A program made the position numbers and the translations under genes. Below, in pieces: positions 34,741 to 54,729 of a DNA stretch of 64,000 nucleotides. The stretch lies in assembly GCA_963796275.1 (NCBI GenBank), contig CAWCKY010000004.1, forward strand, positions 384,001 to 448,000, in the 5' to 3' direction. The notes under the pieces are model-generated. The model was not told where the DNA came from and ran no database searches. It saw only the letters and a list, made by a program, of their open reading frames with translations. This DNA comes from an uncultured Acidobacteriota bacterium (lineage in GTDB: Bacteria; Acidobacteriota; Blastocatellia; RBC074). How positions within the stretch are numbered: position 1 is the stretch's first letter; every line of letters starts with the position of its first letter.

Positions 34741-34761
34741 AAGATGTTACAATGGAGCATT

Positions 34762-35604: not shown

Positions 35605-35628
35605 TCTCAATCTAACAAGGGGACCATA

Positions 35629-36648
35629 ATGGCTGTAGACACTCAAGTGATCCGTGACGAGGAAGTGTTGGAAAAACTTACCGCCGCGCGCGCGAGCATA
35701 TTACGCGAAATTCGCAAGGCGATCGTGGGACAGGATGAGGTGGTGGAACAAGTCCTGATCTCGCTTTTCGTCGGCGGACATTCGATCATCACCGGCGTGC
35801 CCGGGCTCGCCAAAACCTTGCTGGTGCGGACGATCGCCAACGTGCTCGATCTCTCGTTCAAGCGGATCCAATTCACGCCGGACCTCATGCCAGCCGATAT
35901 CACAGGGACTGAGATCATCGAAGAGGACCGCGCGACGGGAAAACGCGCTCTGGAATTCATCCACGGGCCTATCTTCGCCAACATCATCCTGGCTGACGAA
36001 ATCAACCGCACTCCGCCGAAGACTCAGGCGGCCCTGCTCGAAGCGATGCAGGAGGGCAACGTGACCGTACAGGGCGAGACCTATCCGCTTCCCAAGCCCT
36101 TCTTCGTGCTCGCGACGCAGAATCCGATCGAAATGGAAGGCACCTATCCGCTGCCGGAAGCGCAGCTCGATCGTTTTATGTTCAATGTCCGCATCGGATA
36201 TCTGCCGGAAGAGGATGAAGTGGAGGTGGTCAAGATGACTACTTCGCCGCAGGACCTGAGGTTCGAACGACTGATGTCGGCCGAAGAGATCATCGCTTTC
36301 CAGAGACTTGTGCGTAAAGTCCCATCGGCCGATTCCGTCACGCGCTATGCGGTGAATCTGGTCAGCACGAGCCGGCCGGGCACCGAACGGGCGCCGGATT
36401 TTATCAACCGCTGGGTGACCTGGGGCGGTTCATTGAGGGCATCACAATATCTCATCCTGGCGGGCAAGGCGCGAGCCATTCTGCACGGGCGTTATAACGT
36501 CTCGTGTGAAGACATTCGCGCATTGGCTCAGCCCGTTTTGCGCCATCGCATCCTGCTCAATTTCCAGGCTGAATCCGAGAAGGTGGATTCGGATCACGTG
36601 ATCAGAAGGTTGATAGAAACGGTTCCCGAACCCAAGTCGGGGCTTTAA
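35629..36648 (+). CDS. moxR: MoxR-family AAA+ ATPase
   Basis: GVPGLAKT (Walker A), RIQFTPDLMPADITG, LADEINR, ATQNPIE, LPEAQLDRF. Confidence 0.96.
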   Translation: MAVDTQVIRDEEVLEKLTAARASILREIRKAIVGQDEVVEQVLISLFVGGHSIITGVPGLAKTLLVRTIANVLDLSFKRIQFTPDLMPADITGTEIIEEDRATGKRALEFIHGPIFANIILADEINRTPPKTQAALLEAMQEGNVTVQGETYPLPKPFFVLATQNPIEMEGTYPLPEAQLDRFMFNVRIGYLPEEDEVEVVKMTTSPQDLRFERLMSAEEIIAFQRLVRKVPSADSVTRYAVNLVSTSRPGTERAPDFINRWVTWGGSLRASQYLILAGKARAILHGRYNVSCEDIRALAQPVLRHRILLNFQAESEKVDSDHVIRRLIETVPEPKSGL

Positions 36649-36732
36649 TTGCGGACTGCGATTGCGGATTTTCGGAACGATTTCCCATTCAATCCGCAAT
36701 CTGCGCGTTATCTGAGGCACAAGTAAGTAGAG

Positions 36733-37665
36733 ATGAAACTTACCAATCAACCATCCGCGATTCGCAACGGGCAATCCGCAGTCAGTCTGCGGTTCCTTTC
36801 CCCCGATGTACTGGCGCGCATCAGTTCGCTCGAGTTGCTCGCTCGCAGCGTCGTCGAGGGCTTTATCTCGGGATTGCATCGGTCGCCGTTCACCGGCTTC
36901 TCTACCGAATTCGCCGAGTATCGGCAGTATATGCCCGGAGATGATCTGCGCTACCTGGATTGGAAATTGTTGGGGCGCACCGACCGCTATTACATCAAGA
37001 AATACCGGGCCGACACCAACGCGCAGTGCCATATCCTGATCGATGCCAGCGCATCGATGCGGTATACCACGGGATCGATCACCAAACTCCAGTATGCGCA
37101 ATATCTCGGCTCCTCGCTCGCTTACCTCTCCAATAAACAGCAGGACGCGGTCGGATTTATCGCATTCGATCAGGAGATCCGCACGCACGTGCCGGCGCAC
37201 AACCGCACCGGGCAAATGCGCACGATCTTCGGGCGGATGGAGCAACTCGAGGCGGGCAATGAGACCAATTTGTCGAAAATGCTCCACCAGGCTGCCGAGA
37301 GAATTACGCGTCGCGGCATCATCATCGTGATCTCCGATTTTTACGATGAGCCGGCAGCGATCGTCAGCGCGCTCCAGCACCTGCGGTTCAAAGGCAACGA
37401 TGTCATCGTCTTTCACGTGCTCGACAAGAATGAGTTGGATTTTGAATTCACCGAGCCGGTCCTCCTGGAAGATGCGGAGAGCGAAGAGCAGATTCACGTA
37501 ATGCCCGATGTGTTGGGTGAAGGTTATCGCAACACCATTCGCGCGCACATCGATCAGCTGCGCGACGGCGCATCGATAAACAGGATCGATTACGAATTGC
37601 TGACAACCGACAAGCCGCTTGATTTCGCGTTGTTCTCGTTTTTGGCTAAAAGGGCGAAACAGTAG
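36733..37665 (+). CDS. DUF58 (VWA-like) protein
   Basis: GLHRSP..G.STEFAEYRQYMPGDDLRYLDWK, DASASM, ISDF. Confidence 0.93.
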   Translation: MKLTNQPSAIRNGQSAVSLRFLSPDVLARISSLELLARSVVEGFISGLHRSPFTGFSTEFAEYRQYMPGDDLRYLDWKLLGRTDRYYIKKYRADTNAQCHILIDASASMRYTTGSITKLQYAQYLGSSLAYLSNKQQDAVGFIAFDQEIRTHVPAHNRTGQMRTIFGRMEQLEAGNETNLSKMLHQAAERITRRGIIIVISDFYDEPAAIVSALQHLRFKGNDVIVFHVLDKNELDFEFTEPVLLEDAESEEQIHVMPDVLGEGYRNTIRAHIDQLRDGASINRIDYELLTTDKPLDFALFSFLAKRAKQ

Positions 37666-37753
37666 GAAACCAATAGGGCGAGAAGCGGCGAAACGCAAAA
37701 ATCCTTTTTGCACCTTTTTGCTGCTTGCCCTTTTTTGTTTCCGCCATTAAAAA

Positions 37754-39797
37754 ATGTCATTTCTAAATCCACTATTCCTGCTCGGGCTTGCGGCCATCGC
37801 CGCGCCGGTCATCGTACATCTGGTGCGGCGCACGAAAGCTCCGCGCGTCGAGTTCCCTTCCCTCATGTTCGTGCGGCGCGTCCCGCAGCGTACGATTCGC
37901 AAACGTCAATTTCAGAACCTGCTGTTGCTCCTGCTGCGGTGCGCGGCGTTCCTCCTGCTGGTACTCGCCTTCGTGCGCCCCTACTTCGGCAGCGGTCAGG
38001 CCGAGAGCGCCGGGCAGCGCGCAAACATCATCCTGCTCGATTCGTCATTCAGTATGCGCTATGACAACCGCTTCGATCGGGCAAAAGAGCGAGCCCGGGA
38101 GACCATCGATCAATTCGGCGGCGGAGATCGCACGGCGCTCGTAACTTTCGGGCAGGGCTATGAAGTTCAAAACAGATTCACGACTGACATCGGCCAGTTG
38201 AAATCCGTGCTCGCTAACCTTCAACCCGGCTCCGGCAGTACCGACTACATCCAGGCGATCCGGGCTGCTGAAGGAATGTTCAAAGAGGCGGGGGCCGGCA
38301 TCAAGAACATAATCTTGATCTCGGATTTTCAGGCCAGCGGGCGTAATGCGTCCGAGGCGGCCTATCGTCTGGACAAAGCTATAAAGCTCACGACCATAGA
38401 TACTGGGCGAACCTGAATCACCCAACCTGGCGATCCCGGAAGTAGTGGTTCAACCGCTGATCTACCAGCCGAAATACACGGAGCGCCTCACGGCGCGCAT
38501 CGCGAACTTCAGCGAGGCGGCTAAGGATGCCGTACGCGTCGAATTTCAGCTGAACGACCGCACCGTCGAGAAGCGCGAGATTAAGATTCCCGCGCGCGAT
38601 GCGACTACTGTCGAGTTCACCGGGTTCAATCTCAACGAAGGAGACAACCGCGCGACGATCCAGGTCGATGGCGACAATTTCTCCTTCGATAATCGCCGCT
38701 ACTTCACTCTGCGCCGCACCGACCAGCTGAAAGCGCTGGTGATAGAGTCTGCGACGCGCGGCCGCAGTGAGAGCTTTTACCTGCGCAACGCCTTGATGAC
38801 AGGCGAGAACCTGCCCTTCAACGTGGAGAGCAAGACGGCCGGCGCGGTCAATCCTACCGAGATCGCGAACTATCGGGTGATCATTCTCAATGACCCGGGA
38901 AGCGTCTCTCAAGCCATGGCGGCTCAGCTCACCAGGTTCATCGAGGGCGGCGGCGGACTCATCATCTCGGCGGGACCGCACACTGATCCGTCCGCATTCA
39001 ACCAGACATTTCAGAACATTGCGCCGGCTAAACTCGAGGAGGCGGTGCAATTGCGCGGCGATTACGTCTCTATGAGCGAGATCAAAACCGATCATCCGAT
39101 CTTCGAGGTCTTCCGGCAGAGCGGGCGGCTATCGGCGGCGCGCGTCTTCGGGTATCACCGGGCAACCTCGAGCGAACAGGCATCTGTGCTCGCCCGCTTT
39201 GAGAACGGCAACCCGGCCCTGATCGAATCGTCGCACGGAAGCGGCAGGGTCCTGCTCTTCACCTCGACTTTCGACGCGAGCTGGAACGACCTGCCATTGA
39301 CCCCGATCTATCTCCCGCTCGTGCGGCAGATGACGCGGTATCTGGGTGAGCACGAAGAAGCGGCTTCGAACCTGCTCGGAGAGACCTTCACAGTCGCAGC
39401 GGCGAAGGACGGCTCGCTTCCTTCGATCGACGATCCGAGCGGCGACCGCGTAACCGACCGCAAACAGATGGCGACGGGAGAATTGATAGTCAACGCGAGC
39501 GAGCCGGGATTTTATCATCTGCGTTATTCCGGCAATTCAAAGTACGCGGCGGTAAACCTCGACGGCAAAGAATCGGATTTAGCGAAACTCAGTGTGGACG
39601 AGTTCGTCGCCTCCGTCACCGGCACCGATCCGGCTGCAGCACAGGCCGCCAGCGTCACCGGCGGTGAAAAGTTGAGCAATGATGAGGTAGAATCGCGCCA
39701 GCGCGTCTGGTGGATTTTGCTGATTGCGGCATTCCTGTTGTTCGTAGCGGAGGGCATTCTTGCGCGGCGAATAAAAATGTCGAGGGTGATCGGCTGA
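37754..39797 (+). pseudogene. BatA/VWA double-TM protein split by a +1 frameshift (ORFs 37754-38416 and 38445-39797)
   Basis: MSFLNPLFLLGL..PVIVHL..FPSLMF (BatA N-terminus), DSSFSM MIDAS. Removing one G of GGG at 38405-38407 gives continuous TIDTGEPESPNLAIPEVVVQP. Could be a sequencing error. Confidence 0.78.
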
Positions 39798-39971
39798 AAG
39801 GGCAGGGCATGTGAAGATCGAATGAGTTATGATTATGCAGAAGAGAGTTTCCCCACAAAAAGCAAAAGTATTTCCAAAGACACAAACATCTTCGTTCTCT
39901 GTGCTCTTTGAGTTATTTCTGTTTCATCGTGGTGAATCTAACGGGTGGGTCGTCAAATCGCGAGGAAAATT

Positions 39972-42900
39972 ATGAATTATCTAGATAATCAAGTCTTCCA
40001 GATCATTCGTGCGGTGCGCAAGCGCCGTAATCTGCTCACCGTGTTACGCGGAGGTGCGATTACGCTCGCGATTTCAGCGGTTCTTTTGATCCTCAGCGGC
40101 TTCGCGGCATACCGCTATCGTTACAATACCGGCGCGCTCGTCTCGCTACGCATAGCCGCGCTTCTGGGTGTGATCGCCGCGGTATATTTCTTCCTCGTTC
40201 GCCCGCTGCGCCGCAAAATCAGCGATACGCGGATCGCGCGCTTCGTCGAAGAGAAACACTCCGGCATCGGCGATCGGCTCGTCAGCGCCGTGGAGTTCTC
40301 CGACGAAGAACAACGCTCGCTCTTTTCGCCATCCATTATCGAGCGCCTGATCGGCGATGCCGACCGGCACGCGCGCGACGTCAACGTTGACGAGGTCATC
40401 CCGCGTAAACGTTTCTGGCGACTGGGAGGCGCGGGAGCCGCGTGCATAGCTCTCTTCCTCTTCGCATTGATCTTCGGACCGGAAGAACTGAAGAGCGGAA
40501 TATTACAACTGGTCGCTCCGGCCAGCCCGGCGGCCGCATCGAATGCCCTCCGCCTCGATATCAAACCAGGAACCGCGCGCGTACCCAAAGGCTCGGATCA
40601 GAGGATCAGCGCTTCGCTCATAAACTTCCAGGCGGAACAGACCACCGTCTTTACGCGCAAAGCGGGCGGCGCGAGCGACCAGTGGGTCGGACAGCCGATG
40701 GAGCCCGCGAAGAACAACAACGAGTTCCAACTCTTCATTTTTAACATTCAGGAAGACACCGAGTACTTCTGCGAATCCGGAGGCGTACGCTCAGAGGTTT
40801 ATAAGCTTACGGTCGCAGACCTGCCGTTCGTCAAACGCATCGATCAAACGCAGTTTGCCCCCAGCTACACAGGCATGCGGCCCAAGATCATCGAGGATGC
40901 TCCGGATATCGCAGCACTCGCCGGCACGAACGTCAAACTCACCGCGAAGCTTTCAATCAAAGCGAAGGGCGCCCGGATCGTGCTTGCCGACGGAAAGAAA
41001 GTAGAGATGGAGCTGGCTGGCGAAAGCGATTTCGCCGGCACGATTTCGGTGACCAAGAACACCAGTTATCACATCGAGCTCACCAGCGTCGATGGAGATG
41101 TTTATAACGGCTCTAACGAATATGACATCAGCGTTCTCGAAGATCGTCCCCCGACGGTGACTTTCGATAAGCCCGGCCGCGATATGCGGGCGACGAGCGT
41201 GGAGGAGGTCTTCACGCAGGCCAAGGCTGAAGATGACTATGGCGTCGTCTCGCTCGACCTCCATTTTTCGGTCAACGGAGGCGAAGAGAAGAAGGTCGAT
41301 CTGCAGAAGTTGCGCGGCAACTCAGCGCGTACGCTCTCGGGCGCCCACACCTTTTTCCTGGAAGAATACGGCCTCGAGCCAGGAGACCTGATCTCGTACT
41401 ATGCCAGGGCTCGCGATGCGCGGAATGAGACCACCAGCGACATTTATTTCATCGAAGTCAAACCATTTCAGAAAGAGTTCAAACAATCACAACAGGGAGG
41501 CGGTGGCGGTGAAGGTGAAGATCAGGGGCAGGGATTGACCAGGCGGCAGAAGCAGGTCGTGGCCGCAACTTTTCGCGTGAATCGCGATGAGCCGACCTAT
41601 TCGGAGCAGGAGAAGACCGAGAACTACACCACGGTCACGCTCTCTCAGGAAAAATTGCACCAGGACGCGACTGCGCTGATCGACCGCATAAAACGCCGGA
41701 TGGGCGATCAGATCAGCCAGGAGCCGCAATTCGTGAAGCTCGTCGATTATCTGACCGAGGCGGCGAAGTCGATGGCGCCCGCAGTCACCGAACTGAAAGC
41801 GCGGAAAGGTAAAGATGCTATCGTGCACGAGCAAAAGGCGTTACAGCAGCTGATGCGCGCTGACGCTATCTTCCGCGAGATGGAGATCGCCATCAGCCAG
41901 GATGGGCAGGGCAACAGCTCCGAAGCCCAGGAGCTGGCCGATCTCTTCGAACTCGAAATGGATAAGATGAAGAACCAGTACGAGACGCTCAAGCGCGAGC
42001 AACAGCAGAAGTCTCAAAAGCAGGATGATGAGACCAAGCGCAAACTCGAAGAGCTCTCACAACGGATGCAGCGCGAGCTCGAGCAGCAGCAGCAGCGCAT
42101 GCAGAGCGCGCGCAACGGCGGCGGCGGCGGTGGCGGCCGCGACCAGCAACAGATGATCGACGAAGCCCGCAAGGCGGCGCGCGAACTCGAGCGGCTGTCG
42201 CGCGAGCGGCGCGACCCGCAGATGATGGACCTGAGCAATAAGCTCAACCAGGCGGCTGACGAAATGCAGCGCTCCCAGAATGCCGCGCGCAACAATAATC
42301 AACAGGAAGCGCTATCCCGCAATTTGCGAGCTCAGCAACAGATTGACGAGGCGACCCGCCGCCTCAACCAATTGCAGAAGTCCCAAGGCAACCAATCGAT
42401 CCAGGGCCTGCGCCAGCGCGCCTCCAACGCGGCGGCTCAGCAACAGGAGATCGCGAAACAGGTCGAAGATGTCGCCCGTCGCAGCCGCGCCGGGGATCAG
42501 TCGGCCGGCCAATCGAAGCAACAACTTTCAGAACGCAAGGATGAATTGGCCAACGAAGTGAACAATCTCGAAAGAGACATCGATCAAACTGCGCGCGGGC
42601 TCGGCCAGGAACAACAGGAGGCGGCTAACCGGTTGCGTGATGCGGCCACCTCGATCCGGCAAAACCGCGTGGCCGACCGCATCCGAGGTACGCGGAAGAT
42701 GGTGGATAGCAATGCGTTCGACGCCGCTCAAGCGGGAGACAGAGAGATTCAACAGAACCTCGATAATGTCGCCCAGCAACTGCAAGAGGCCGATAAGATG
42801 GCTCAGCGTAAGGGACAACAGGGCGGCGAGGCGGATCCTCTCGATAAAGCCAGCCAGCTGGCTAATAACATTGAATCGATGCGGCGCCGGCTCAACTCTG

Positions 42901-43679
42901 ATTCCCAGCGTGGCGAGGGCAACCAGCAGGGCCGCGCCAATCAGAATCAGCAAAATCAGCAAAATCAACAGGGTCAGGGCCAGCAGGATCAACAGGGCCA
43001 GCAGGGGCAACAGGGCCAGCAAGGGCAACAGGGACAGCAGGGGCAACAGGGCCAGCAGGGGCAACAGGGGCAACAGGGCCAGCAGGGGCAACAGGGGCAA
43101 CAGGGCCAGCAGGGACAACAGGGCCAGCAGGGACAGCAGGGACAACAGGGACAGCAAGGGCAACAGGGCCAGGGTCAGGGTCAGGGTCAGGGTCAACGAG
43201 GAAATCAGTCAAACGGGCAAAACCGTGGCCAGAGCGATCAGGGTGAAGGGCAAGGCTCTCAACGATCGGAAGGATCACCTAACCCGCAGAATCACCAAAA
43301 TCCGGGTGGCGGCGGGCCTATTCGTGGCGTCCAGCTTGATAAGCAGTTCAAGGCTGAGCTTAACCAGTATCTGCGCGATGCCGAAGATTTGCGCCGCAAC
43401 CTTCCCCGTGACCGCGATCTCACGCGCAACCTCGACCAGGCGATCCAGGCATTGAAGCAGGCCGGCGAATTTATCGGGCGCGATGATAATCGCACCGCGG
43501 CATTATTGAAAACTCAGGTAGTCGATCCTCTCCGCAGCATTGAAATGGAACTGAGCAAACGTCTGCAAGCTAAGCTCGGTAAGAACAATCTGAGGCTGTC
43601 GGACGAAGGAGCCGCCCCGGAGCGTTATCGTAAGCTGGTCGACGAGTACTACAAACGCCTATCTTCAGGCTCGAAATAA
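39972..43679 (+). CDS. DUF4175-like membrane-anchored Ig/coiled-coil protein with Gln/Gly-rich tail
   Basis: Three N-terminal TMs, [16 protein letters not shown], long Q/E/R coiled coil, terminal [15 protein letters not shown]. Confidence 0.82.
42990..43193 (+). repeat. Coding tandem repeat (QQG)20 followed by (QG)4
   Basis: Twenty 9-bp CARCARGGN units counted from 42990 to 43169, then cagggt x4. Confidence 0.92.
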
Positions 43680-43714
43680 ATACTCGCAGTTATAATAAGG
43701 ATATAATTGCAACC

Positions 43715-43758
43715 GAACATGATTATCGACTAACTTATGTTAATCGATAATCATGTTC
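43715..43758 (+). terminator. Long hairpin after the MoxR/VWA operon
   Basis: gaacatgattatcgactaac-ttat-gttaatcgataatcatgttc; 20-bp arms with one mismatch; no clear U tract. Confidence 0.55.
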
Positions 43759-44209
43759 CCAGCCTGAATAGCCTCATTTCTTTAATTATTTTTACTAACA
43801 ACAACCTATACACTCGCCAGGAACTTATTATCCACTAATAACCATCATTACCGATGCTACCCTCATTTATATCTAATATTAATTCGACGTACGAACGATA
43901 TCTATCCTATTGATGTTTGTTCCAACTTCGTATAGCCTTTCTTTGGATCTTCAATGATCGGCTGTAGCTAAGTTACATATATTATAGATAAACATTAACA
44001 TAAACTATCATTGAACGATCTGCCCTATTCCTCACCTAATGACTGATGGTTAGATCACTTTGGTAGCCAGTTTGTGAGATATCTATCGCAGGCGGGCTTC
44101 TATATCTCAATGGTTTTAAACGAACCTAGAGAAAGTGATGTGTCTCGTTCTCTCTATCAGTCGCTTTAGGGTTTCTCCCATCTTTTTCAAGGACGCCACT
44201 TTTTAACTT

Positions 44210-44261
44210 GTGTGTCGGCAGCAAATCCGTTGCCGTGTTGGGATACTTATCCCACTCACAC
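44210..44261 (+). promoter_or_regulatory. Candidate structured 5'-leader RNA, copy 1
   Basis: GTGTG..CGGCAGC-aaatcc-GTTGCCG..GGGAT-actt-ATCCC..CACAC; covaries with the copy at 45737-45787. Confidence 0.55.
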
Positions 44262-44320
44262 TTTTCATAAAACGTTCCTTGCCATCAGGTGTAGGAAGAC
44301 AATCAGGAGAGAACAAGACA

Positions 44321-45268
44321 GTGAAAAAGTTAACGACAATATCATTCTTTGCGCTGGCGCTTGCTGCTTCATTGGCCTTAGGTCTTATGGGCAATCATTC
44401 TGCCGACGCCAAAGTCAACTCATCAACTACATCAGCTGCGAGCATCAGTGCTCAGATGTCGGGTGTGCCGATTTTCGCTTTGGGCGCCCGCAATAACACG
44501 CTTTATCTACTCTCAGGTTCGACTTTTAACAGGATAGGCGCTATCAGCCCGGTTAACGGGACTGTGGTTGAGTGCGATTTTCGTACCGCTAACAACCAGC
44601 TTATGTGTGTGACGAACGCAGGTAGCTTCTATTCGGTTAATACGGCTAATGCCCAGGCTACTTTAGTGGCTAACCTGTCACCAAATAACCCCACTGCTCA
44701 GCTATTGGATATCAATCCAGTGGCCGATGCATTCAGGTGGGTAGGAACGAACGAAACTAACCTTGCTATCGTCAAAAACGCAGCAGGCGTCTTCAATACG
44801 GTAGCGACCCAAACATCCTTCGCTTATGTCGCGGGCGATGTACGCGCAGGCACGAATCCGAATCTGGTCGCGGGCTCATATGACAATAACCTGAATGGCC
44901 TGGCGACTACCACCTTCTTCATATTCGATTCCGGCACCAACCAGGCGGTCACGATCGCAGACAGGACTGCCACGGGGAGTTCGAATACTGGCGGAGGCCG
45001 GTTGGTAACTATTGGTAGTGTGATCGACCAGGATGGTCCGATAGACATCACCGCTGATTCTGGTTCAGACATCAAAACCTTTGCAAACCTGGGCAATCTA
45101 AATATTGCTGCATTACTTACCACTGGTAGACTCAGTTTCATATTTACCGCCCAGGTTCCAAATATCGTAACGCCCGGACAGACACAGAATCTCGGTGCCT
45201 TCAGTCAAGGCGTTGTCGGTAGTGATGGTAACAATAATTGGTCGGATGTCATGATCCCAATCCAATAA
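44321..45268 (+). CDS. Exported DUF4394-like protein, copy 1
   Basis: GTG follows AGGAG; signal peptide; CDFRTANNQL, DINPVADAFR, AYVAGD, NPNLVAGSY. Confidence 0.78.
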   Translation: MKKLTTISFFALALAASLALGLMGNHSADAKVNSSTTSAASISAQMSGVPIFALGARNNTLYLLSGSTFNRIGAISPVNGTVVECDFRTANNQLMCVTNAGSFYSVNTANAQATLVANLSPNNPTAQLLDINPVADAFRWVGTNETNLAIVKNAAGVFNTVATQTSFAYVAGDVRAGTNPNLVAGSYDNNLNGLATTTFFIFDSGTNQAVTIADRTATGSSNTGGGRLVTIGSVIDQDGPIDITADSGSDIKTFANLGNLNIAALLTTGRLSFIFTAQVPNIVTPGQTQNLGAFSQGVVGSDGNNNWSDVMIPIQ

Positions 45269-45315
45269 CAACCATTTGCTGGGTCAACTGCGACACAGTG
45301 AATAAATACATCCTT

Positions 45316-45368
45316 TTCTCGAACATTCCATCCGCAAAGCATAACTTTACGGATGGAATGTTCGAGAA
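45316..45368 (+). terminator. 3' hairpin of DUF4394 copy 1
   Basis: Perfect 19-bp arms ttctcgaacattccatccg / cggatggaatgttcgagaa. Confidence 0.65.
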
Positions 45369-45736
45369 GGTTAATGCAAAGACAGTAGCAATCAGTTCAG
45401 TAAAGAGTAACAACCCGCGCCTGAAACAAAGCCAATATCCTTAAATCCAGTCTATTTTAAAATACTAACCTACCATAAAGAATGGCTTCCTGCTTGATAT
45501 TTAATTCAATATTGTTTAAGCTTTCTACGGATCTACTAATGCATAGCTTCACAATTATAGAGTCCCAATAACAAAGTTACCGTTGAAAGCTATCATTGTA
45601 AGATCCGCCCTTTCCTCACCTAATAACAATATATAGGTTTTGGATTTTGCCTATTGCTTCGTGCCCTTTCGTGGACTGAATTACCGGTCCATTTCGTAGC
45701 CTACAGAACGCCTACTAGAACGCCTTCAAACAATTA

Positions 45737-45787
45737 GTGTGGCGGTAGCACCCGGTTACCGTTAGGAGATGTTTATCTCATTCACAC
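45737..45787 (+). promoter_or_regulatory. Candidate structured 5'-leader RNA, copy 2
   Basis: GTGTG..CGGTAGC-acccg-GTTACCG..GAGAT-gttt-ATCTC..CACAC. Confidence 0.55.
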
Positions 45788-45836
45788 TTATATATACTCG
45801 ATAACCAATCCTTATTTAGGAAAAATCAGGAGCGAT

Positions 45837-46820
45837 ATGACCAAGAAGAAGCTAACGACATTTACATTAATTGCGCTGGCGCTTGCTGTCTCATTGACGT
45901 TCGGTCTTATGGGCAATCATTCTGCCAAAGCTAAAACCACCCCAAACACATCGGCTGTGACAGCAGCATTGTTTCCGAGCCTCAGTGCACAGGTTCCAGG
46001 GCTAAATATTCAGTACTACGCGCTTGCTAACAACAGCTTATATGTCCTGTCAGGCACGACCTTTAACAGGATTAATACCATCAGCAATATCGGTAATGAC
46101 ACGATAATCGGAATCGATTTTCGCCCGCTTGACGGTCAGCTTTATGCATTGTCGAACAACAGCAGGCTCTATACGATAAATCCTGCTAATGCTGTTGCTA
46201 CCCTTGTGAGCACCGTGGCGCCTACCGGTGGCGTTGGCAACTCATCGTTGTTTGATTTCAATCCGGTCGTCGATGCAATAAGAATTATTGGATCAAATGA
46301 TCAAAACTTCGCTGTAGTCAAAGGCGCAAACGGTATCCTCAATACTGTGGCACAACAAACCAGTGTGGCTTATGCCGCGGGTGATGTTTTCGCTGGCACC
46401 AACCCGAACATTGTCGGAGCAGCATATACCAGTAACTTCAATGGTGCGACGGCTACCCTCTTTTATGCATTGGATTCTAACACCAACAAAGTTGTAACGA
46501 TCGCGAACAGAGTTAATGGGAGCTCTGCCACTGGCGGAGGTCAATTGCAAACCATCGGCACTTTGTTTGTTAACGGCCTTGCTATGGACTTCAACGATAC
46601 AGCTGACATGGACATTGTCACCTTTCGAGCAGCAGGAAACCTCGATGTTGGCATTGGGTTAAATGGAAACAGCCTCTTTACAACGTTCTTTATTCAGGTC
46701 AGCCAGACTCTACCTCTTGGCACACAGCAGAATCTTGGTGCCAACGGGATGACTGTAAATTTCAGTACTGGTCCAAACACCATACCCAGTGATGTTGCCG
46801 CTGCCATACCACTACAATAA
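45837..46820 (+). CDS. Exported DUF4394 protein, copy 2
   Basis: IIGIDFRPLDGQLYAL, LYTINP, FDFNPVVDAIRI, NPNIVGAAYT; signal peptide nearly identical to copy 1. Confidence 0.85.
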   Translation: MTKKKLTTFTLIALALAVSLTFGLMGNHSAKAKTTPNTSAVTAALFPSLSAQVPGLNIQYYALANNSLYVLSGTTFNRINTISNIGNDTIIGIDFRPLDGQLYALSNNSRLYTINPANAVATLVSTVAPTGGVGNSSLFDFNPVVDAIRIIGSNDQNFAVVKGANGILNTVAQQTSVAYAAGDVFAGTNPNIVGAAYTSNFNGATATLFYALDSNTNKVVTIANRVNGSSATGGGQLQTIGTLFVNGLAMDFNDTADMDIVTFRAAGNLDVGIGLNGNSLFTTFFIQVSQTLPLGTQQNLGANGMTVNFSTGPNTIPSDVAAAIPLQ

Positions 46821-47031: not shown

Positions 47032-48804
47032 CTAAAATTTCAAAATATGGTCTGTCACACGCTGGCAAGGCTTCAATTCAATCTCATTCTTCTTCGCTTC
47101 AGCTTCTTTTCGTAATTTCGCGCGTTCACCGCTGTCCCTGGCGAGAGGCAGGGTTTGTCGATCAATAATCTCTTCATCCGAAACGATACGCGTCAACAAC
47201 CAGTATCTCCCCGGCGCCAGGTTTTTGAAGGTAAATGTTCTATCGCCGCCAATCAGAGTTTCACCGTATCGCAACACGTCATCGGCTGCCGTTGTCTCAG
47301 CCGGAACCAGATGAATCCGAAGCCGGCTAGGTATCTGCGGCCCTTCCGCTTCGGCGACGACTTTGCCGCGCAGGCTTGCAGCGCCTTCCGCCACTGTCAC
47401 GGTTATACCTGTCAGATTCTCCCCGGCTCTGATCGCGATGCCCGAACGGTTGACATCGAGATCGCCGGCTAACCTGGATACTGCCCCGGTCCGTCGCGCA
47501 GGCGCTGCGGATTTGGTTGTGATCGATTTAACGTACCAGTTTCCACTCGGCAATGAAGGTTCAAGCCGATATCGTCCCGGCATTAAATACCGAACTGTGA
47601 AATCACCTGTATCGCTGACTCCCGTATCGGACAGCGAGAACTGAATGGATTGATCGATGCCCTGCTCCTTATCATCGCGCCGAGGGGATAACAGAATTTC
47701 TTCTATCACATTTTTGTTCTTATCCGCGCAAGCGCTCTGTGATTTTTCGAGGGCGACTCGACCGCTTATCGAAGCCATCGGCGCCATCTTCAGCTCGATC
47801 CCGGTGACATCAGCTCCCTTCACCGTCACACGGCGAGGCAAGGATGACAATTGCTCTTCGTTGCCTCCCCCTCGACGCGCCATGATTTCATATTCACCAT
47901 CATCCACCCCTAAAATCGCAAAACCGTTTTCGCTTTCGCCGCTTCGAGCCGAGGATGACCCTGAAAATGTCCCCGTAGCCGTATTGAAGAGCGTAATGCC
48001 CGCAAGCATATATGGCGTGGACGAGTCACCGCCCCCGGTTACAGTCCCGCTGATGACATGCCCACGCTCGTCGCGTAAGCGAATGTCGATGCCCATCGCT
48101 TCACTTCCGTTCGAGACTGTCACCTCGGAAGCCGTATCTCGTGTAGATGACGGGTGGTATGTTGTGGCCGACTGAGTATCTCCGACAGCCCGGCAATAAA
48201 CAATGTAGGTGCCGGGCGCCAGGCCGTATAGACGGTAGATACCGCGATCATCCGTCATGCGGGTTCGACCGCCAGTGGATTGGCGTACCTTGAAGCCCTC
48301 GGCATCGCGCACCATTAACGCGCTGATATAAACACCGGTAATCGGTTCTCCATCCGTAGTTATTACCTTACCCGTGATCACTCCGCCCTTGATCAGAGTG
48401 AGGGTGGCGCTCTCACCGATCCGATAAACGCGCCTCTCGCGTCTCTCGGTTGCTGGAGGAGGCTGCACGGCATATCCTCCCGTTCGGAAAATATTGACCT
48501 GGTAGGGGCGAGGAGAGAGTCCCATAAAACGAAAATTTCCATTCTCATCCGTAGTCACACTACGAGCCACGCTACCCAATGCACCTTGACCCGTACTCAC
48601 CGGGTAAAGACTGACACTCATATTCGGCGCTCCATTGCCGTCTTCCGTCACGACCCGGCCGGTGATCTCGCCCGTTCGCCCCGCCTGCACCGTTTGTCGC
48701 GTTTGCCCCATTTGCCACGTTTGCTGGGCGTTGCTCGGATAGAATGTGGCAATCAGCAGGAGAGCTATCGAGGCAGCGCGGCGCCAGCAAATTACGATAT
48801 TCAT
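47032..48804 (-). CDS. Exported multi-domain carboxypeptidase regulatory-like (prealbumin-fold repeat) protein
   Basis: Signal peptide; repeated ITGRV..TDENGNFRF, GGVITGKV..TDDRGIYRLYGLAPG, LAPGRY modules. Confidence 0.83.
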   Translation of the reverse strand: MNIVICWRRAASIALLLIATFYPSNAQQTWQMGQTRQTVQAGRTGEITGRVVTEDGNGAPNMSVSLYPVSTGQGALGSVARSVTTDENGNFRFMGLSPRPYQVNIFRTGGYAVQPPPATERRERRVYRIGESATLTLIKGGVITGKVITTDGEPITGVYISALMVRDAEGFKVRQSTGGRTRMTDDRGIYRLYGLAPGTYIVYCRAVGDTQSATTYHPSSTRDTASEVTVSNGSEAMGIDIRLRDERGHVISGTVTGGGDSSTPYMLAGITLFNTATGTFSGSSSARSGESENGFAILGVDDGEYEIMARRGGGNEEQLSSLPRRVTVKGADVTGIELKMAPMASISGRVALEKSQSACADKNKNVIEEILLSPRRDDKEQGIDQSIQFSLSDTGVSDTGDFTVRYLMPGRYRLEPSLPSGNWYVKSITTKSAAPARRTGAVSRLAGDLDVNRSGIAIRAGENLTGITVTVAEGAASLRGKVVAEAEGPQIPSRLRIHLVPAETTAADDVLRYGETLIGGDRTFTFKNLAPGRYWLLTRIVSDEEIIDRQTLPLARDSGERAKLRKEAEAKKNEIELKPCQRVTDHILKF

Positions 48805-50516
48805 TGATTGCCCTCCTGCTGGCCGAGATCGATCATGAAAGTGATGGATGTCTGGTTATTGTTGGAGACAACGACCTTCTGTTTGGCTTGACTGAACGCC
48901 CTCGAAAGCCGGGCCTGGGCATCAGGTTGCGACACACCGGGATAAAATTGCGGGGTCACGTGCAATTCATATTCCCCAGAACCCAGATTTCCAATGACGA
49001 AACGCCCGCCTTGATCTACCTCTCCTCTCGGCAGATATCTTCCCTGAATCTGTTCCGCCAGGTGACGAGCGTTTACGTACATCCTCAAGTTCCTGGGCAG
49101 AGTCCCATTTACGATCTTCACTTCTCCGCGAATCTCATAAATGCTATGGATAAGGACGACGCGTACGTTCGATAGATTCTCTCCCGGGCCGACTGTGATT
49201 CCTTCTGGATGAGACGCTCCGTTATGCTCGAGACGAAGCATGGTAAACTGGCTCATCAAGCCATCGGTTCTAAAATAGGGTGAGACTAATACTTTCCCAG
49301 GGTTCAGTCCCTTGACGACGAAGCTGCCATCCGGACCTACCTTGACAGCACCAGGGCCCGGCCCACTCGCCCCTTCCGATCTACTATAGAAATAGAGCTG
49401 GAGGTGCGACAGTTTCGCCAACACCGCCGGATCATTTGCGCCTTCGATCACGACGGAACCGCTAAGAGTACTGCCCTGCTTTATTCTCACCTCAATGCCA
49501 TGCGCGTCGCTGTCGACAACATCGCAAGAGGCTGGTTCGCTGTAGAAATCATCGCCCTGGTTGCCGCGCGCGAAGATAGCATATTTACCCTTAACAATAC
49601 CCTGCAACCGAAATTCCCCTTTTGCATCTGTGGGTTCGCCATTACCGGACCACGATTGTACTGTGCGACCATCCGGTGAAATAGTACCGCAGTAAAGCCG
49701 GACTCCCGAGACAGGCTGCCCCGTCCCGCCGTCCACGACCCGCCCAAATATGGCGTATGACTTTTTCGCGTCACCGAGAACAATGTCGACTCCGGTAGAT
49801 TCAGAACCTTCGCCGACCTCGAGCACCTTCGCCTGCGCTTGATCGGTAACATCCGGGTGGTAAGTCCTTGGATAAAGGCTTTGACTAGGCCTCGGTGAGG
49901 AACTTTCAGGCGAATTCCCCGCTCTAACCAGATATCGTCCCTCCGGCAGTCCGTAGATGCGATAGATGCCGCGATCATCCGTATCGCTCATGCCGTAGGT
50001 ATTAATATGGAAATATTGCGGCTTCCCGCTCTCATCGATCCTCATCAACTCAACTTGCTCTTCAACTAACGGGCGGCCACTCGAATCGGTTATGGATCCT
50101 GTAATCACACCGCCGCGTTTAAGTTCGATATCGATGTTCTCAATGGTTTCGTTATCGCCGACGTTAAGTATCCTACCACTCATCCCTTGATATGCCGGAT
50201 TTCCTTCGGATAAGACGTACGCGGCCGCGGCCGCGCTCACCGAATAACGACCGGACGCCACACCGGTTATGCGGAAAATCCCATTCGCATCGGTCTTGGC
50301 GCGCGGCGCTGTAGCCGTATCCGATGACGTAACCAATGGGCGCTGCTCGCGTAATGTTACAGTAACACCACGCATCGGCTCTTCTTTTACGGTAACCCGG
50401 CCTGAGACTGTGGAAGTACCGGCCTTTGTCTCTTTCGATTGGGCGTGTGCGGTAAAGCTAAGGGGAAAACAACAGAGAGTTGCCAGAGCAAAGGCTGTGA
50501 GTATGAGCTTTGACAT
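48801..50516 (-). CDS. Exported carboxypeptidase regulatory-like repeat protein (paralogue)
   Basis: Signal peptide; VSGRV..TDANGIFRITG, GGVITG..TDDRGIYRIYGLPEGRY, TYHP; 4-bp overlap with the next gene. Confidence 0.83.
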   Translation of the reverse strand: MSKLILTAFALATLCCFPLSFTAHAQSKETKAGTSTVSGRVTVKEEPMRGVTVTLREQRPLVTSSDTATAPRAKTDANGIFRITGVASGRYSVSAAAAAYVLSEGNPAYQGMSGRILNVGDNETIENIDIELKRGGVITGSITDSSGRPLVEEQVELMRIDESGKPQYFHINTYGMSDTDDRGIYRIYGLPEGRYLVRAGNSPESSSPRPSQSLYPRTYHPDVTDQAQAKVLEVGEGSESTGVDIVLGDAKKSYAIFGRVVDGGTGQPVSGVRLYCGTISPDGRTVQSWSGNGEPTDAKGEFRLQGIVKGKYAIFARGNQGDDFYSEPASCDVVDSDAHGIEVRIKQGSTLSGSVVIEGANDPAVLAKLSHLQLYFYSRSEGASGPGPGAVKVGPDGSFVVKGLNPGKVLVSPYFRTDGLMSQFTMLRLEHNGASHPEGITVGPGENLSNVRVVLIHSIYEIRGEVKIVNGTLPRNLRMYVNARHLAEQIQGRYLPRGEVDQGGRFVIGNLGSGEYELHVTPQFYPGVSQPDAQARLSRAFSQAKQKVVVSNNNQTSITFMIDLGQQEGNQ

Positions 50517-51113: not shown

Positions 51114-54100
51114 GTGCGATCCCCAAAGTACCTCTTTCGTTTTATTATCGGAATGTCGTTGTTAAGCTACATTCTCTCTTTTGACTGCACTTTGAGCGTA
51201 TCCTCTCTGGCACAATCAAAGGATGACGATGCCATTCGCGGACTGGTCAAGAAAATATTCGAGTTATACCAAGAGAAAGCCACCGATAAGCTTCTCTCAC
51301 TCTGGAACGAGAAATCTCCTCTTCTGATCGAGAACAAAAAAGCCCTGCAAAGGGAATTTGCCGCATACGAGCAGATTATTGTGAAGGGGTTTGACATTCG
51401 TCAGATGAAGATCGTTGGCGATAAGGCAACGCTGCGGGTGGTGGCTGAGATGGCACTCACCAGATCCAATTTGGTAAAACCGATTGAAACTTTAGATAAG
51501 AAGAACCTGACGATTGAGCTGGTAGCCCAGGACGGAGGTTGGAAACTATGGAAATTTATCTTGAGCGAGGAAGAACTGTCTGCGGCTATCGTTGAAGCAA
51601 AGTCAGATGAAGAGCGGAAGGTCTTGATGAAGAGAGAGCCAGAATTGATCACCTCCGACCTCGCATCCGCTCTCCTTCGCCGGAATCTTGATGTTGAAAC
51701 TCTCTATCAAAAGGGATACCAACACGCACTCGCCATCAATCGGATCGCATATGAGCTTGCAGAATTGAATGCTGACCAATATGTCATGGCAAATGTACTA
51801 ATAAATATAGCTACCATATATGGTTGGATAGGAGCACCTGAAAAATCTCCTGACTTGGCGTTAGAGAATTTACGAAAAAGTTTGAAGATTGGAGAGGTGA
51901 ACGGATTTAAAAAGATTATCGGCATTTCGCTGAGCAACTCTGCAATGTTATATCAAACCCTAGGCGAGCTTTCCCCGGCCACTGATTTTTATCTGAGAAG
52001 CCTCAAACTGTTTGAGGAACGGAGAGACCCCATAGCGATTATCCCGACCTTGAATAACCTGGGTATTATCTATGATCTACAAGGCAATTCAGCCAAGGCT
52101 CTGGAATTTCACTTGAGATCACTGAAGATGTCGGAAACCCGACTCGAGTCCGGATCGGATTGGGCAAATTTATCGAGGGCGCTTGGAAATATTGGCAGTG
52201 TTTTCATGGCCCAAGGAAACGATGACCAGGCGTTGTCATATTGCCAAAAAGCGTATGAAGCCGCGGAAAAAGCGAGGACGCTGGGAGATTCTTCCGCCAG
52301 TTATCTCAAATCCAAACTGTTAGAATCCATTGCCAAAATTTATCTGAAGCAAGGCGACCACTCATTATCGATGGATTATTACCAGAAAAGCCTGAAGCTG
52401 GCGGAAGAGCTTGGAAATACACTGATAGATCTTAAAGACAGTTCAATTTCATCACTCAAAACGAGCATTGGCGACGTTTTCTCAGCACAAAATAATCTGT
52501 CTCAAGCCATCGAAAACTATAAGGAAGCAATTCTGATGGCTGCAAAATCAAGAAATAAAACTATGATGCCGTACCCTCTATTTCGCCTGGGTGAGATTTA
52601 TCTCTTACGCGGGGATTATCGCGAGGCTTTAGCCTATGCTGAGCGAGCTATCAGTGCTGCAGAAGAAAGCGGCGTTCCCAGTTATTCGCGTGACGCTCTA
52701 GTAACAGCGGCTAGAGTCTATCAGAAGCTCGGCCAACCTGAGGAAGCCCGCCAAACATTAGTCAGGGCAATTGATGTTACCGAGCGGTCGCGCGAGCAGT
52801 TTGCCGGAAGCGAAATCGACCGCCAGCGTTCCTACGAGAAATTCGTGACTCCGTATCAGGTTATGATCGATTTCCAAGCCGAACGAAAACAATTCAGGGA
52901 AGCCTTCTCCTATGCGCAGCGAGCGAAAAGTCGCACTCTCCTGGAACTACTACAAAACGGCCGAGTCAACATTGACAAATCGTCGTCTCCCGCGAAGCGG
53001 GAGCAGGAGCTACCACTAACCCGCAAGATCATTTCTCTCAACCGTCAAGTCACCGATGAGAAACTGAAATCTCAACCAGATTTAAAACGACTGGCTGAGG
53101 TCGAAGAGCAGTTGAAAAAAGCCCGCTCAGAGTTCGAAGCTTTCCGCACTACACTTTATGCCACACATCCCGAGCTTAAAGTTCAGCGCGGCGAGATTCG
53201 ACCGATATCCTTTGACGACGTCGCGGGCCTCATTCCAGACTCTAAGGCAGCACTGTTAGATTTCATCGTCACCGACGAGAACGTCCACCTCTTCCTCTTG
53301 ACCAAAGATGCTTCCGCGCAACCGGCCCTGAATACTTATACCATCAAGATCGAGCGCAAAGCGCTGGCAGAGAAGGTCGACCGCTTCCGGCGCCGAATGG
53401 AAAACCGAGACTACGACTTCCAGGCCCTCTCCAGGGAACTCTATGACTTGTTGATCAAACCGGCGCAGAAACAACTGCAGAACAAAACCAATCTCATTAT
53501 CTCTCCCGACAATGTGCTATGGGACTTGCCATTCCAGGCTTTGCTCTCTCCGGAGCTACGCTATTTGATTGAAGACACCGCAATCTCATATGCTCCTTCC
53601 CTCTCGGTGCTGAGAGAGATGCGGCTCGCGAGCAAAAAGAGACCGGCGCCAGCCAAAACCTCGTTACTGGCTCTGGGCAACCCGGCGCTGGGACAGCGGA
53701 GCCGTGAATTGGTAAAGTTTGTCAAAATGGATTCAGAGTTACAGCCATTGCCTGAGGCGGCTGATCAAGTCCGGGCTTTGGAGCGTTTGTACGGGAAGAC
53801 GCTAAGCAATGTGTACACGGGCACAGCTGCACGAGAAGAACTGGTCAAGGAGCAATCGGCCCGCTATCGCATCCTGCATCTGGCGGCTCACGGCATCTTC
53901 AACGACGTCAGCCCGATGTACTCGCACATCCTGCTGTCTCAAACTCCCGGAAAGGACGAAGAAGACGGGCTGCTGGAAGCCTGGGAGATGATGAACCTCG
54001 ATTTGAATGCCGACCTGGTGGTGCTCTCCGCCTGTGAGACGGCGCGCGGGCGAGTGGGAGCGGGCGAAGGTGTGATCGGGATGACGTGGGCGTTATTCGT

Positions 54101-54329
54101 GGCGGGATGTCCGAGGACCGTGGTCAGTCAATGGAAGGTAGAAGCATCGAGCACGACGGCCTTGATGCTAGAGTTCCACAAGAGATTCAAGACGAGACTC
54201 GAGCATCAGAAATCAGCTGTTTCTACCGCGGAGGCGATGAGGCAGGCTGCCTTGAAAGTGATGAAGAACCCGGAATACGTGCATCCATTCTATTGGGGCG
54301 GATTTGTCGTCGTCGGCGATGGCAATTGA
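51114..54329 (+). CDS. Signal peptide + NTF2-like + TPR + CHAT (caspase-like) protease, copy 1
   Basis: TPR array, IISPDNVLWDLPFQAL, catalytic HLAAHG and VLSACET, HPFYWGGF. Confidence 0.92.
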   Translation: MRSPKYLFRFIIGMSLLSYILSFDCTLSVSSLAQSKDDDAIRGLVKKIFELYQEKATDKLLSLWNEKSPLLIENKKALQREFAAYEQIIVKGFDIRQMKIVGDKATLRVVAEMALTRSNLVKPIETLDKKNLTIELVAQDGGWKLWKFILSEEELSAAIVEAKSDEERKVLMKREPELITSDLASALLRRNLDVETLYQKGYQHALAINRIAYELAELNADQYVMANVLINIATIYGWIGAPEKSPDLALENLRKSLKIGEVNGFKKIIGISLSNSAMLYQTLGELSPATDFYLRSLKLFEERRDPIAIIPTLNNLGIIYDLQGNSAKALEFHLRSLKMSETRLESGSDWANLSRALGNIGSVFMAQGNDDQALSYCQKAYEAAEKARTLGDSSASYLKSKLLESIAKIYLKQGDHSLSMDYYQKSLKLAEELGNTLIDLKDSSISSLKTSIGDVFSAQNNLSQAIENYKEAILMAAKSRNKTMMPYPLFRLGEIYLLRGDYREALAYAERAISAAEESGVPSYSRDALVTAARVYQKLGQPEEARQTLVRAIDVTERSREQFAGSEIDRQRSYEKFVTPYQVMIDFQAERKQFREAFSYAQRAKSRTLLELLQNGRVNIDKSSSPAKREQELPLTRKIISLNRQVTDEKLKSQPDLKRLAEVEEQLKKARSEFEAFRTTLYATHPELKVQRGEIRPISFDDVAGLIPDSKAALLDFIVTDENVHLFLLTKDASAQPALNTYTIKIERKALAEKVDRFRRRMENRDYDFQALSRELYDLLIKPAQKQLQNKTNLIISPDNVLWDLPFQALLSPELRYLIEDTAISYAPSLSVLREMRLASKKRPAPAKTSLLALGNPALGQRSRELVKFVKMDSELQPLPEAADQVRALERLYGKTLSNVYTGTAAREELVKEQSARYRILHLAAHGIFNDVSPMYSHILLSQTPGKDEEDGLLEAWEMMNLDLNADLVVLSACETARGRVGAGEGVIGMTWALFVAGCPRTVVSQWKVEASSTTALMLEFHKRFKTRLEHQKSAVSTAEAMRQAALKVMKNPEYVHPFYWGGFVVVGDGN

Positions 54330-54364
54330 ATAAAAAGACTGATGCAATGCGGAGATAGGTTTTC

Positions 54365-54729
54365 GTTTATGTTCGAAACGAAGCAAGGCAAATTCGTGCA
54401 TCGGGCTATCAATTCTAAAGTAGGGCGAGACTGAAACTTTCCCGGGCTCAGCCCCTTGTCGATGAAGCTGCCATCCGGACGTACCTTGACAGCACCGCGG
54501 CCCGGTCCACTCACCCCTTCCGAATTGATATAGAAATATTGCGGGCTTCCCGCTCTCATTGAACCTCATCAAATCCACTTGCTCTTCAAGTAACGGGCGG
54601 CCACTCGAATCAGTAATGGATACTGTAATCACGCCGCCGCGTTTCAGTTCGATGTCAATGTTCTCAATGGTTTCGTTGTCGCCGACGTTAAGCATCCTGC
54701 CACGCGTCTCTGAGTTTTAGCTTTGACAT
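54365..54729 (-). pseudogene. Internally deleted copy of the 48801-50516 gene
   Basis: MSKL start (54729) joined to LNVGDNETIENIDIELKRGGVIT..DSSGRPL, then to SEG.SGPG.GAVKV.PDGSF; the upstream DNA also repeats about 50500-50760. Confidence 0.88.

Follow-up and report, generated by a model that had tools for sequence, protein, structure and literature searches.

Why two neighbouring genes of a family without assigned function should both be preceded by the same set of nested complementary strands is the question raised by a locus in the genome of an uncultured Acidobacteriota bacterium. The locus lies within a stretch of 64,000 nucleotides (nt), hereafter the window (C4:384001-448000 of a 9.46-Mb assembly in 7 contigs), and comprises two paralogous DUF4394 genes on the plus strand, each with a three-stem motif in front of its start codon. 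A sequence-only reading of the window had proposed this motif as a candidate new cis-regulatory RNA with compensatory changes in its stems. The comparisons reported here support a structured leader RNA: the three-stem leader is real and is a new, narrowly distributed candidate cis-acting leader RNA, with its mechanism at the stage of a proposal.

The two copies and their homologues

Examination of the sequence confirmed both copies with the stems that had been described (Table 1), as well as the two double changes that had been named between them, one in P2 (C-G to U-A) and one in P3 (G-C to A-U). Each copy spans about 52 nt and folds compactly into a three-way junction with an outer stem, P1, that encloses two hairpins, P2 and P3; the length of the P2 loop differs by 1 nt between the copies. 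Copy 1 ends 59 nt 5' of the GTG at 44321 and copy 2 ends 49 nt 5' of the ATG at 45837. The three-stem junction is the minimum-energy fold of both, at -22.1 kcal/mol (z -4.7) for copy 1 and -20.4 kcal/mol (z -3.0) for copy 2, and 0 of 200 shuffles folded as well in either case. The sense strand of both copies outfolds the antisense strand, for which -19.2 kcal/mol (copy 1) and -14.0 kcal/mol (copy 2) were obtained. The two intergenic regions are otherwise mostly diverged, being alike only in the motif, in a 39-nt block located about 170-200 nt upstream of it and in the Shine-Dalgarno region.

Both downstream genes were assigned to DUF4394 by their matches to Pfam PF14339, in agreement with the sequence-only reading. 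An AlphaFold2 model of the paralogue 2 protein (mean predicted local distance difference test score, pLDDT, 76.7) has an N-terminal helix and is all-beta after residue 57. Its best Foldseek matches are six-bladed propellers of the YWTD/Kelch type at a template modelling (TM) score of about 0.4, a value so low that they indicate only the fold class and give no clue to a signal. The genes of this subfamily are predicted to encode secreted beta-propellers of Blastocatellia.

A search with cmscan of positions 43600-46000, on both strands and with E values up to 10, found no match on either motif among the 4227 models of Rfam 15, so that the known family that could have accounted for the motif was not encountered. 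Ten sub-threshold matches fell elsewhere in this region, namely eight to microRNA (miRNA) families on a hairpin at 45306-45375, one to the small nucleolar RNA Afu_198 and one to transfer-messenger RNA. Full-text literature searches on the name 'DUF4394' and on 'Blastocatellia' combined with 'riboswitch' yielded nothing.

A covariance model built from the two window copies (R1) scored them at 96.2 bits (copy 1) and 87.7 bits (copy 2). In the 9.46-Mb genome, which holds 10 DUF4394 domain matches in 8 genes, only these two copies were significant, the third match having an E value of 4.35. The search in Acidobacteriota suggested by the sequence-only reading did bring relatives carrying the motif: among 151 related genomes, R1 found one copy each in G062 and G057, both of which are Blastocatellia. 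A weak match in G035 was discarded, as it lies inside a coding region. A second model built from 4 sequences (R2) gave the same 4 significant matches in the 87 genomes of the order, here equivalent to the family, which places the motif in 3 of 87 genomes. Close orthologues of paralogue 1 among these 87 genomes were found only in G062 and G057; in the two other genomes of the window's own genus (87% and 73% complete) neither orthologue nor motif was detected.

A protein-guided scan of metagenome contigs extended the sample with 80 loci. Of these, 12 encode a product with 61-69% identity to paralogue 1, and in all 12 the motif was present in the same place, complete in 11 and cut by the contig end in one. 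No motif match was obtained at the remaining 68 DUF4394-related loci, nor at 25 loci of more distant paralogues searched using R2 with its filters off. A total of 15 copies was thereby assembled (two from the window, two from the related genomes and the 11 complete copies from soil-type metagenome contigs), representing 11 distinct sequences. In all 15 the gene that begins 40-60 nt further on is paralogue 1, paralogue 2 or an orthologue, the distance being about 47 nt for the 13 copies from outside the window. These occurrences show that the three-stem element travels with this DUF4394 subfamily.

Substitution pattern and strand

Additional homologues might have broken the pairing proposed from two copies, but they kept it. 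In the alignment of the 11 distinct sequences, 184 of the 187 cells assigned to stem pairs are paired (158 Watson-Crick and 26 G-U), the three exceptions being A-C, and the changes are all transitions, many of them passing via G-U. RNAalifold recovered the same three helices from these sequences. When the 11 leaders were folded from the motif to the start codon, 9 had the junction as their minimum-energy structure, the exceptions being L050 and L053. A hand count gave a minimum of 17 substitutions in the stems, and in 14 of them a standard pair is preserved (binomial p 0.006 versus one half). Three double changes were recognised: C-G to U-A, A-U to G-C via G-U and G-C to A-U via G-U. Sliding the partner strands lowers pairing to 23-55%, a comparison in which the structure itself was derived from these same sequences.

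The contrast between stems and loops is sharper still. Among the 34 stem columns, 21 are invariant and 13 vary by transitions only, and not one shows a compensatory transversion despite saturated neutral sites. In the loops and junctions 14 of 18 columns vary and 4 are invariant. Variation between purine and pyrimidine therefore affects 0 of 34 stem columns versus 11 of 18 loop and junction columns (Fisher p 5e-7).

Deep comparisons among paralogue 1, paralogue 2 and the orthologue lineage allowed the leader to be set against the gene that it precedes. The stems are 79-94% identical, the loops and junctions 35-59%, the first and second codon positions 62-80% and the third codon positions 43-57%. 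The stems are thus more constrained than the protein and the loops are not, which shows that selection maintains the fold. The preponderance of G-U cells over A-C cells (26 versus 3), together with the fixed position before a plus-strand gene, points to an RNA of the sense strand, and indicates that selection is RNA-like and specific to that strand rather than directed at DNA palindromes. A coding reading of the motif was rejected: its GTG opens a mechanical open reading frame (ORF) of 352 amino acids (aa) at 44210-45268, but whether this GTG shares the frame of the gene depends on the copy (it does in copy 1 and L015, and does not in copy 2 and L055), and the P2 loop carries a 1-nt indel.

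Table 1. Features of the two DUF4394 leaders and genes, in window coordinates
Feature	Coordinates	Strand	Description or basis
Conserved upstream block, leader 1	44005-44043	+	TATCAT -10-like hexamer at 44006-44011; CCTCACC box
Three-stem motif, copy 1	44210-44261	+	Sequence, minimum-energy fold, model R1, pair counts on 11 sequences
Copy 1 P1	44210-44214/44257-44261	+	GTGTG/CACAC
Copy 1 P2	44216-44222/44229-44235, loop 44223-44228	+	CGGCAGC/GTTGCCG, one G-U
Copy 1 P3	44240-44244/44249-44253, loop 44245-44248	+	GGGAT/ATCCC
Copy 1 junctions	44215, 44236-44239, 44254-44256	+	Strands of 1, 4 and 3 nt
Possible P4, copy 1	44275-44297	+	TTCCT 44275-44279 / AGGAA 44293-44297; predicted fold
Shine-Dalgarno and start, paralogue 1	AGGAG 44305-44309, GTG 44321-44323	+	Sequence
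DUF4394 paralogue 1	44321-45268	+	315 aa; signal-peptide-like N-terminal helix; PF14339, E 2.7e-25
Conserved upstream block, leader 2	45590-45627	+	Alike nearly throughout to the leader 1 block
Three-stem motif, copy 2	45737-45787	+	Sequence, minimum-energy fold, model R1
Copy 2 P1	45737-45741/45783-45787	+	
Copy 2 P2	45743-45749/45755-45761	+	CGGTAGC/GTTACCG
Copy 2 P3	45766-45770/45775-45779	+	GAGAT/ATCTC
Possible P4, copy 2	45809-45821	+	TCCT 45809-45812 / AGGA 45818-45821; predicted fold
Shine-Dalgarno and start, paralogue 2	AGGAG 45828-45832, ATG 45837-45839	+	Sequence, ORF list
DUF4394 paralogue 2	45837-46820	+	327 aa; predicted beta-propeller; PF14339, E 2e-43

Leader context, proposed role and competing accounts

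We consider it somewhat probable that the motif is a cis-acting structured element of the sense-strand 5' leader in the messenger RNAs (mRNAs) of one DUF4394 subfamily. The element probably acts on its messages after transcription. Of the earlier term 'cis-regulatory', the part that stands is a structured leader element; the word 'regulatory' is unsupported as regards signal, expression platform and transcript end.

Upstream of the motif, the 39-nt block is the one long segment that the two leaders have in common, and it may be a promoter or operator or the 5' end of the leader. If it contains the promoter, the leaders would be about 230-300 nt long and the motif would lie well inside them. 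A promoter-like site, ATAACA-17-TATCAT, was located at 45568-45596, but the region holds 2 such sites versus 5.1 expected from shuffles, so that it is not evidence in itself. Consensus promoter scans of the leaders gave nothing above shuffles, and no conserved pair of sigma-70, extracytoplasmic function (ECF)-type or sigma-54-type elements was seen by eye in the compared leaders. The form TGGCAC-N5-TTGA was discarded, as the corresponding TGACC..TTGAA stretches have no GG and fall short by 1 nt.

A further hairpin, P4, may form in the interval that separates the motif from the true Shine-Dalgarno sequence. Its arms in copy 1 resemble an anti-Shine-Dalgarno and a Shine-Dalgarno sequence, and those of the orthologue lineage (TTACT/AGTAA) represent an A-U to C-G double change relative to copy 1. 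Far upstream, a pyrimidine box (CCUCACC or UCCCAC) was judged by eye to be able to pair with the purine strand of P3 in every lineage; two one-sided changes keep this pairing and two changes at end pairs break it. The GTG start of paralogue 1 aligns with the second ATG of the orthologues.

These strands allow a mechanism to be proposed. The junction would be one state of a strand-exchange switch, or else a platform for a trans-acting factor, and would set translation or mRNA half-life. P3 joins a Shine-Dalgarno-like purine strand (GGGAU or GAGAU) to an anti-Shine-Dalgarno-like pyrimidine strand (AUCCC or GUCUC), P4 would be a second pair of this kind, and the far-upstream pyrimidine box would serve as alternative partner of the P3 purine strand, the resulting chain of exchangeable strands forming a translational switch. 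The stems are more conserved in sequence than pairing needs, which suggests a second constraint on each strand, and the tolerance of transitions only would be explained if the strands served two partners. A metabolite pocket is argued against by the free variation of loops and junction strands and by a loop-loop contact that is not kept: kissing of the P2 and P3 loops appears possible by eye in some copies and is lost in others. Within the account of a cis-acting leader element, we infer that strand exchange or factor binding is the most likely sub-case, unproven as it is. Taken by itself, such control remains a tentative proposition, and an element acting on stability or processing through its shape is a weaker candidate again.

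A number of observations weigh against a cis-acting leader element as we understand it. Shuffled alignments match the real one in 81 of 500 cases for percent paired and in 79 of 500 for the covariation score, controls that fail to reach significance because 21 of the 34 stem columns never vary; the double changes affect only 2 pairs and most columns are invariant. The A-C exceptions are found in tip sequences, in P2 and P3 for L050-L052 and in P1 for L053, where a 2-nt register shift is needed to give back five pairs. The 11 sequences are close kin, 10 of them from one lineage, and some metagenome contigs probably represent populations to which the two assembled genomes also belong, so that the copies are not independent and covariation support is limited by few, closely related sequences. 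Within the orthologue lineage the leaders of most pairs have diverged about as much as third codon positions (identities of 0.86-0.92 versus 0.87-0.93), and the high identity of the flanks therefore proves nothing there. A -10-like CATAAA or TATATA lies downstream of the motif in all copies and would allow transcription to start 3' of it. Predicted accessibility of the Shine-Dalgarno sequence in the leaders (0.04-0.74) is ordinary when compared with a median of 0.38 in 200 control genes, and lends no support to masking of this sequence. As for P4, 52 of 57 cells are paired (copy 2, out of register in the MAFFT alignment, being scored as unpaired) and 146 of 500 shuffles reach the same value, which is no excess; the changes that speak for P4 and for the far-upstream pairing are few.

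Four other explanations have to be weighed. With its three joined helices, its length of about 52 nt and its place in a 5' leader, the element is like small aptamers in size and topology, and a metabolite or ion bound in the junction might alter DUF4394 translation. The stems are strongly conserved, the downstream Shine-Dalgarno-like and anti-Shine-Dalgarno-like strands could serve as an expression platform, and with no Rfam match this would be a new riboswitch class. Purine and glutamine (glnA RNA) aptamers likewise have a P1 closing two hairpins within about 50-70 nt of a 5' leader. In contrast to them, the motif has junction strands of 1, 4 and 3 nt with a variable strand between P2 and P3 (J2/3), neither conserved loop-loop contact nor conserved pocket nucleotides, a context that is not metabolic and no Rfam match to either. 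What would be the pocket is the part that varies freely (J2/3 and both loops, with 14 of 18 columns variable and 11 of them between purine and pyrimidine), and consistent loop-loop pairing was not seen by eye. Moreover, no terminator-like site was found after the motif, predicted Shine-Dalgarno accessibility is ordinary, the genes encode predicted secreted propellers with no link to metabolism or transport, and the range of 3 in 87 genomes is very narrow. We therefore hold a riboswitch to be unlikely. Hammerhead ribozymes, whose conserved junction core combines CUGANGA and GAAA with a UH cleavage site, were also considered and rejected, since the junction strands lack these motifs and no Rfam match was obtained.

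A simpler possibility, doubtful in our judgement but ranking just ahead of the riboswitch, is that transcription starts a few bases before P1 and that the junction, sensing nothing, shields the message of a secreted protein made in abundance against 5'-end-dependent decay. Messages for S-layer and outer-membrane proteins are known to carry long structured leaders, and conserved helices with unconserved loops fit such a role. An A/T-rich, TTAAC-like stretch is found just upstream of P1 in all copies, and in L055 a promoter-like TCGAAA-16-TATATT ends 5 nt before P1. That site is weak, however (9 of 12 positions, one of 2 found versus 1.2 expected), and its -35 hexamer is absent by eye from both window copies. 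A longer leader is suggested by about 430 nt of further conserved upstream sequence in the orthologues and by the 39-nt block of the window copies, and selection on shape alone would permit compensatory transversions, of which none was observed. The stabilising stem-loops in 5' untranslated regions of the ompA type are comparable in preceding an exported-protein gene and in conserving helices over loops, but they are simple hairpins rather than branched junctions and occupy the 5' terminus of their transcripts, whereas conserved sequence here extends well upstream. The sequence-only reading had itself offered palindromic DNA operators as an alternative. Nested inverted repeats bound by a dimeric regulator, or overlapping a promoter, would make the RNA fold a by-product; stems that are conserved in sequence instead of covarying freely agree with this, as do the -10-like hexamer after the motif and the distant leaders described below, whose P2-like hairpin has a conserved loop and pairing not above shuffles. 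Such operators nevertheless fit poorly. The G-U cells correspond in DNA to G-T in 26 of 187 cells and persist through a whole lineage; P3 of the largest lineage (GGGAT/GTCTC) is as DNA only a 3-of-5 palindrome, 8 of the 11 sequences having two G-T among their five P3 pairs; and an operator built from three nested palindromes, the enclosing one a 5-bp repeat with its halves 42 nt apart, would be unusual. The strand-specific preference for G-U over A-C is likewise not predicted by DNA symmetry, and we judge a DNA element quite improbable. Least credible of all, and very improbable, is the absence of any function, with shared descent of duplicated intergenic DNA and a fold by chance. The window genes are indeed tandem paralogues, the orthologue copies are close kin with leaders diverging at about the synonymous rate, and the shuffle controls on the alignment are not significant. 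Yet in the deep comparisons, where third codon positions have fallen to 43-57% and the rest of the leader is unalignable, the stems have stayed far more similar than the loops; transversion-type variation is confined to loop columns; and no shuffle of either copy folds as well.

Placed among known systems, the three-stem leader is closest to the orphan structured leader motifs that comparative genomics has uncovered and that Rfam lists as cis-regulatory candidates without an assigned function. In those too a small conserved structure precedes genes of a single family at a constant spacing, substitutions preserve its pairs, neither ligand nor partner is known and the taxonomic range is narrow. 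It differs from them in having no Rfam 15 model and in being tied to DUF4394 genes. Its own range (3 of 87 genomes plus soil-type contigs) makes it a candidate for cataloguing that is unsurprising in kind. Acidobacteriota are nonetheless among the most abundant soil bacteria and few of their regulatory RNAs have been described. Structural selection on this leader points to probable post-transcriptional control of a set of exported beta-propeller genes, which can be tested, and the leader RNA offers a handle both on the regulatory RNAs of these bacteria and on a Pfam family to which no function is assigned.

Leaders of distant paralogues and neighbouring genes

The leaders of distant DUF4394 paralogues (35-48% identity) contain a series of ordered blocks: a CGGCAG..CTGCCG hairpin like P2, a GG-rich stretch and the sequence GYCTCRTTCAY, which corresponds to the 3' strand of P3, the following junction strand (J3/1) and the 3' strand of P1 in the motif. 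In a set of 61 non-redundant DUF4394 leaders (82 before removal of duplicates, and including 6 from the motif-bearing subfamily), this block pattern occurs in 20 and a CCTCACC-type box in 34, versus 3.7% and 10.8%, respectively, of 5000 random 300-mers from the window's own genome. The distant leaders resemble the motif in their position before paralogous genes, in the order of blocks and in the upstream box. They differ in that TTCAYYC pairs downstream with GAATGR and not upstream with GTGTG, no three-way junction being visible by eye; G-U and compensatory variants of the downstream pairing were also read by eye. The same conserved block thus seems to have switched its pairing partner between leader types, and leaders of this kind may illustrate the joint evolution of leader structure and gene family.

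A model built from 19 distant leaders (R3; examples are L028, L039, L043, L023 and L145) gave 20 matches with E values up to 0.01 in 14 of the 87 genomes, 15 of which are its own training sequences. Nineteen of the 20 lie 61-151 nt upstream of a DUF4394 match on the same strand. Among the five new matches, four precede DUF4394 genes, one of them in G004, where it is the single match and accompanies one DUF4394 match. The fifth (G062:C357:7333-7396, equivalent to L162:134-197) precedes an alpha/beta-hydrolase gene whose product has a hydrophobic, signal-peptide-like N-terminus. In a class-wide sample R3 produced one weak match outside the family (E 0.0016). On the three-stem motif R3 aligned in the right register but scored only 10-11 bits (E 1.3-3.1), the window copies not being matched, and homology of the distant leaders with the motif is suggestive only.

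On a far-reaching view, the junction might be the domain through which a translational switch of a new class senses a ligand or protein, the switch governing a whole regulon of exported proteins in Blastocatellia. The junction would then be a topological variant of a larger homologous leader family in which the partner of the pyrimidine block GYCUCRUUCAY lies upstream of it in one lineage and downstream of it in others, and which stands before most DUF4394 paralogues and at least one secreted alpha/beta-hydrolase. We regard this as speculative and on balance doubtful. The P2-like hairpin of the distant leaders has a conserved loop, and 74% of its cells pair, a value reached by 59 of 500 shuffles, with 70% after a slide of +3.

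Several other candidates from these leaders were rejected. Hairpin P2' (CCUA/UAGG) pairs in 73.7% of cells, a level attained by 248 of 500 shuffles. A wide IUPAC pattern combining P2 and the block matched 81 of the 87 genomes and its reversed control also matched widely, making it too unspecific; among the matches listed, five were recognised upstream of DUF4394 genes. TTCATTC..GAATGG gave 18 strict and 35 looser matches in the window's own genome, of which only C6:1312716 lies before a DUF4394 gene, and its recurrent form is coding and not RNA. This form, TTCATTCAGTCCGGGGAATGG (for instance at C1:1221272, C3:625031 and C6:1194118), encodes ..FIQSGEW.. near the C-terminus of long proteins according to a translation by eye. 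The two in-window genes with ..FIQSGEW.. encode CHAT-TPR proteins, and the CHAT label for the others is a guess. A weak R3 match at 40116-40205 on the plus strand (17.5 bits, E 0.032) falls inside the coding region of a DUF4175 protein and is taken as chance.

Some further features of the orthologue lineage were observed. In leaders L049-L059 the motif is preceded, at a distance of about 55 nt, by a second hairpin, CCACAAGCU..AGUUUGUGG (for example at L049:1320-1355), which shows pair-preserving changes. The whole of the approximately 490 nt upstream of the gene is conserved in this lineage, L056 and L057 being without an internal 150-200 nt. The unit of leader plus gene sits in differing neighbourhoods in L055, L014, L015 and L057 and may move between sites: it follows an ORF that we take to be an IS1-type transposase in L055 and L014, and precedes what is presumably an IS605 OrfB in L015, both labels being assigned from resemblance.

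Within the window, a near-perfect stem of about 20 bp is located at 45315-45369 on the plus strand, 47 nt after the stop codon of paralogue 1 (-37.7 kcal/mol, z -8.9), with no U-tract following. It is the source of the spurious miRNA matches in Rfam, and may be a terminator-like or 3'-end stabilising hairpin separating two transcription units. Upstream of the DUF4394 pair, the plus-strand genes at 34729-43679 encode a DUF4159 protein, a MoxR-type AAA ATPase, a DUF58/VWA protein, a BatA/VWA protein, an unassigned 450-aa ORF product and a DUF4175 protein of 1244 aa, a run that we presume to be a Bat/MoxR-type cluster. Downstream, two adjacent proteins with repeated CarboxypepD_reg domains are encoded on the minus strand (47032-50516), followed on the plus strand by two paralogous TPR-CHAT proteins of about 1100 aa each (51114-58374).

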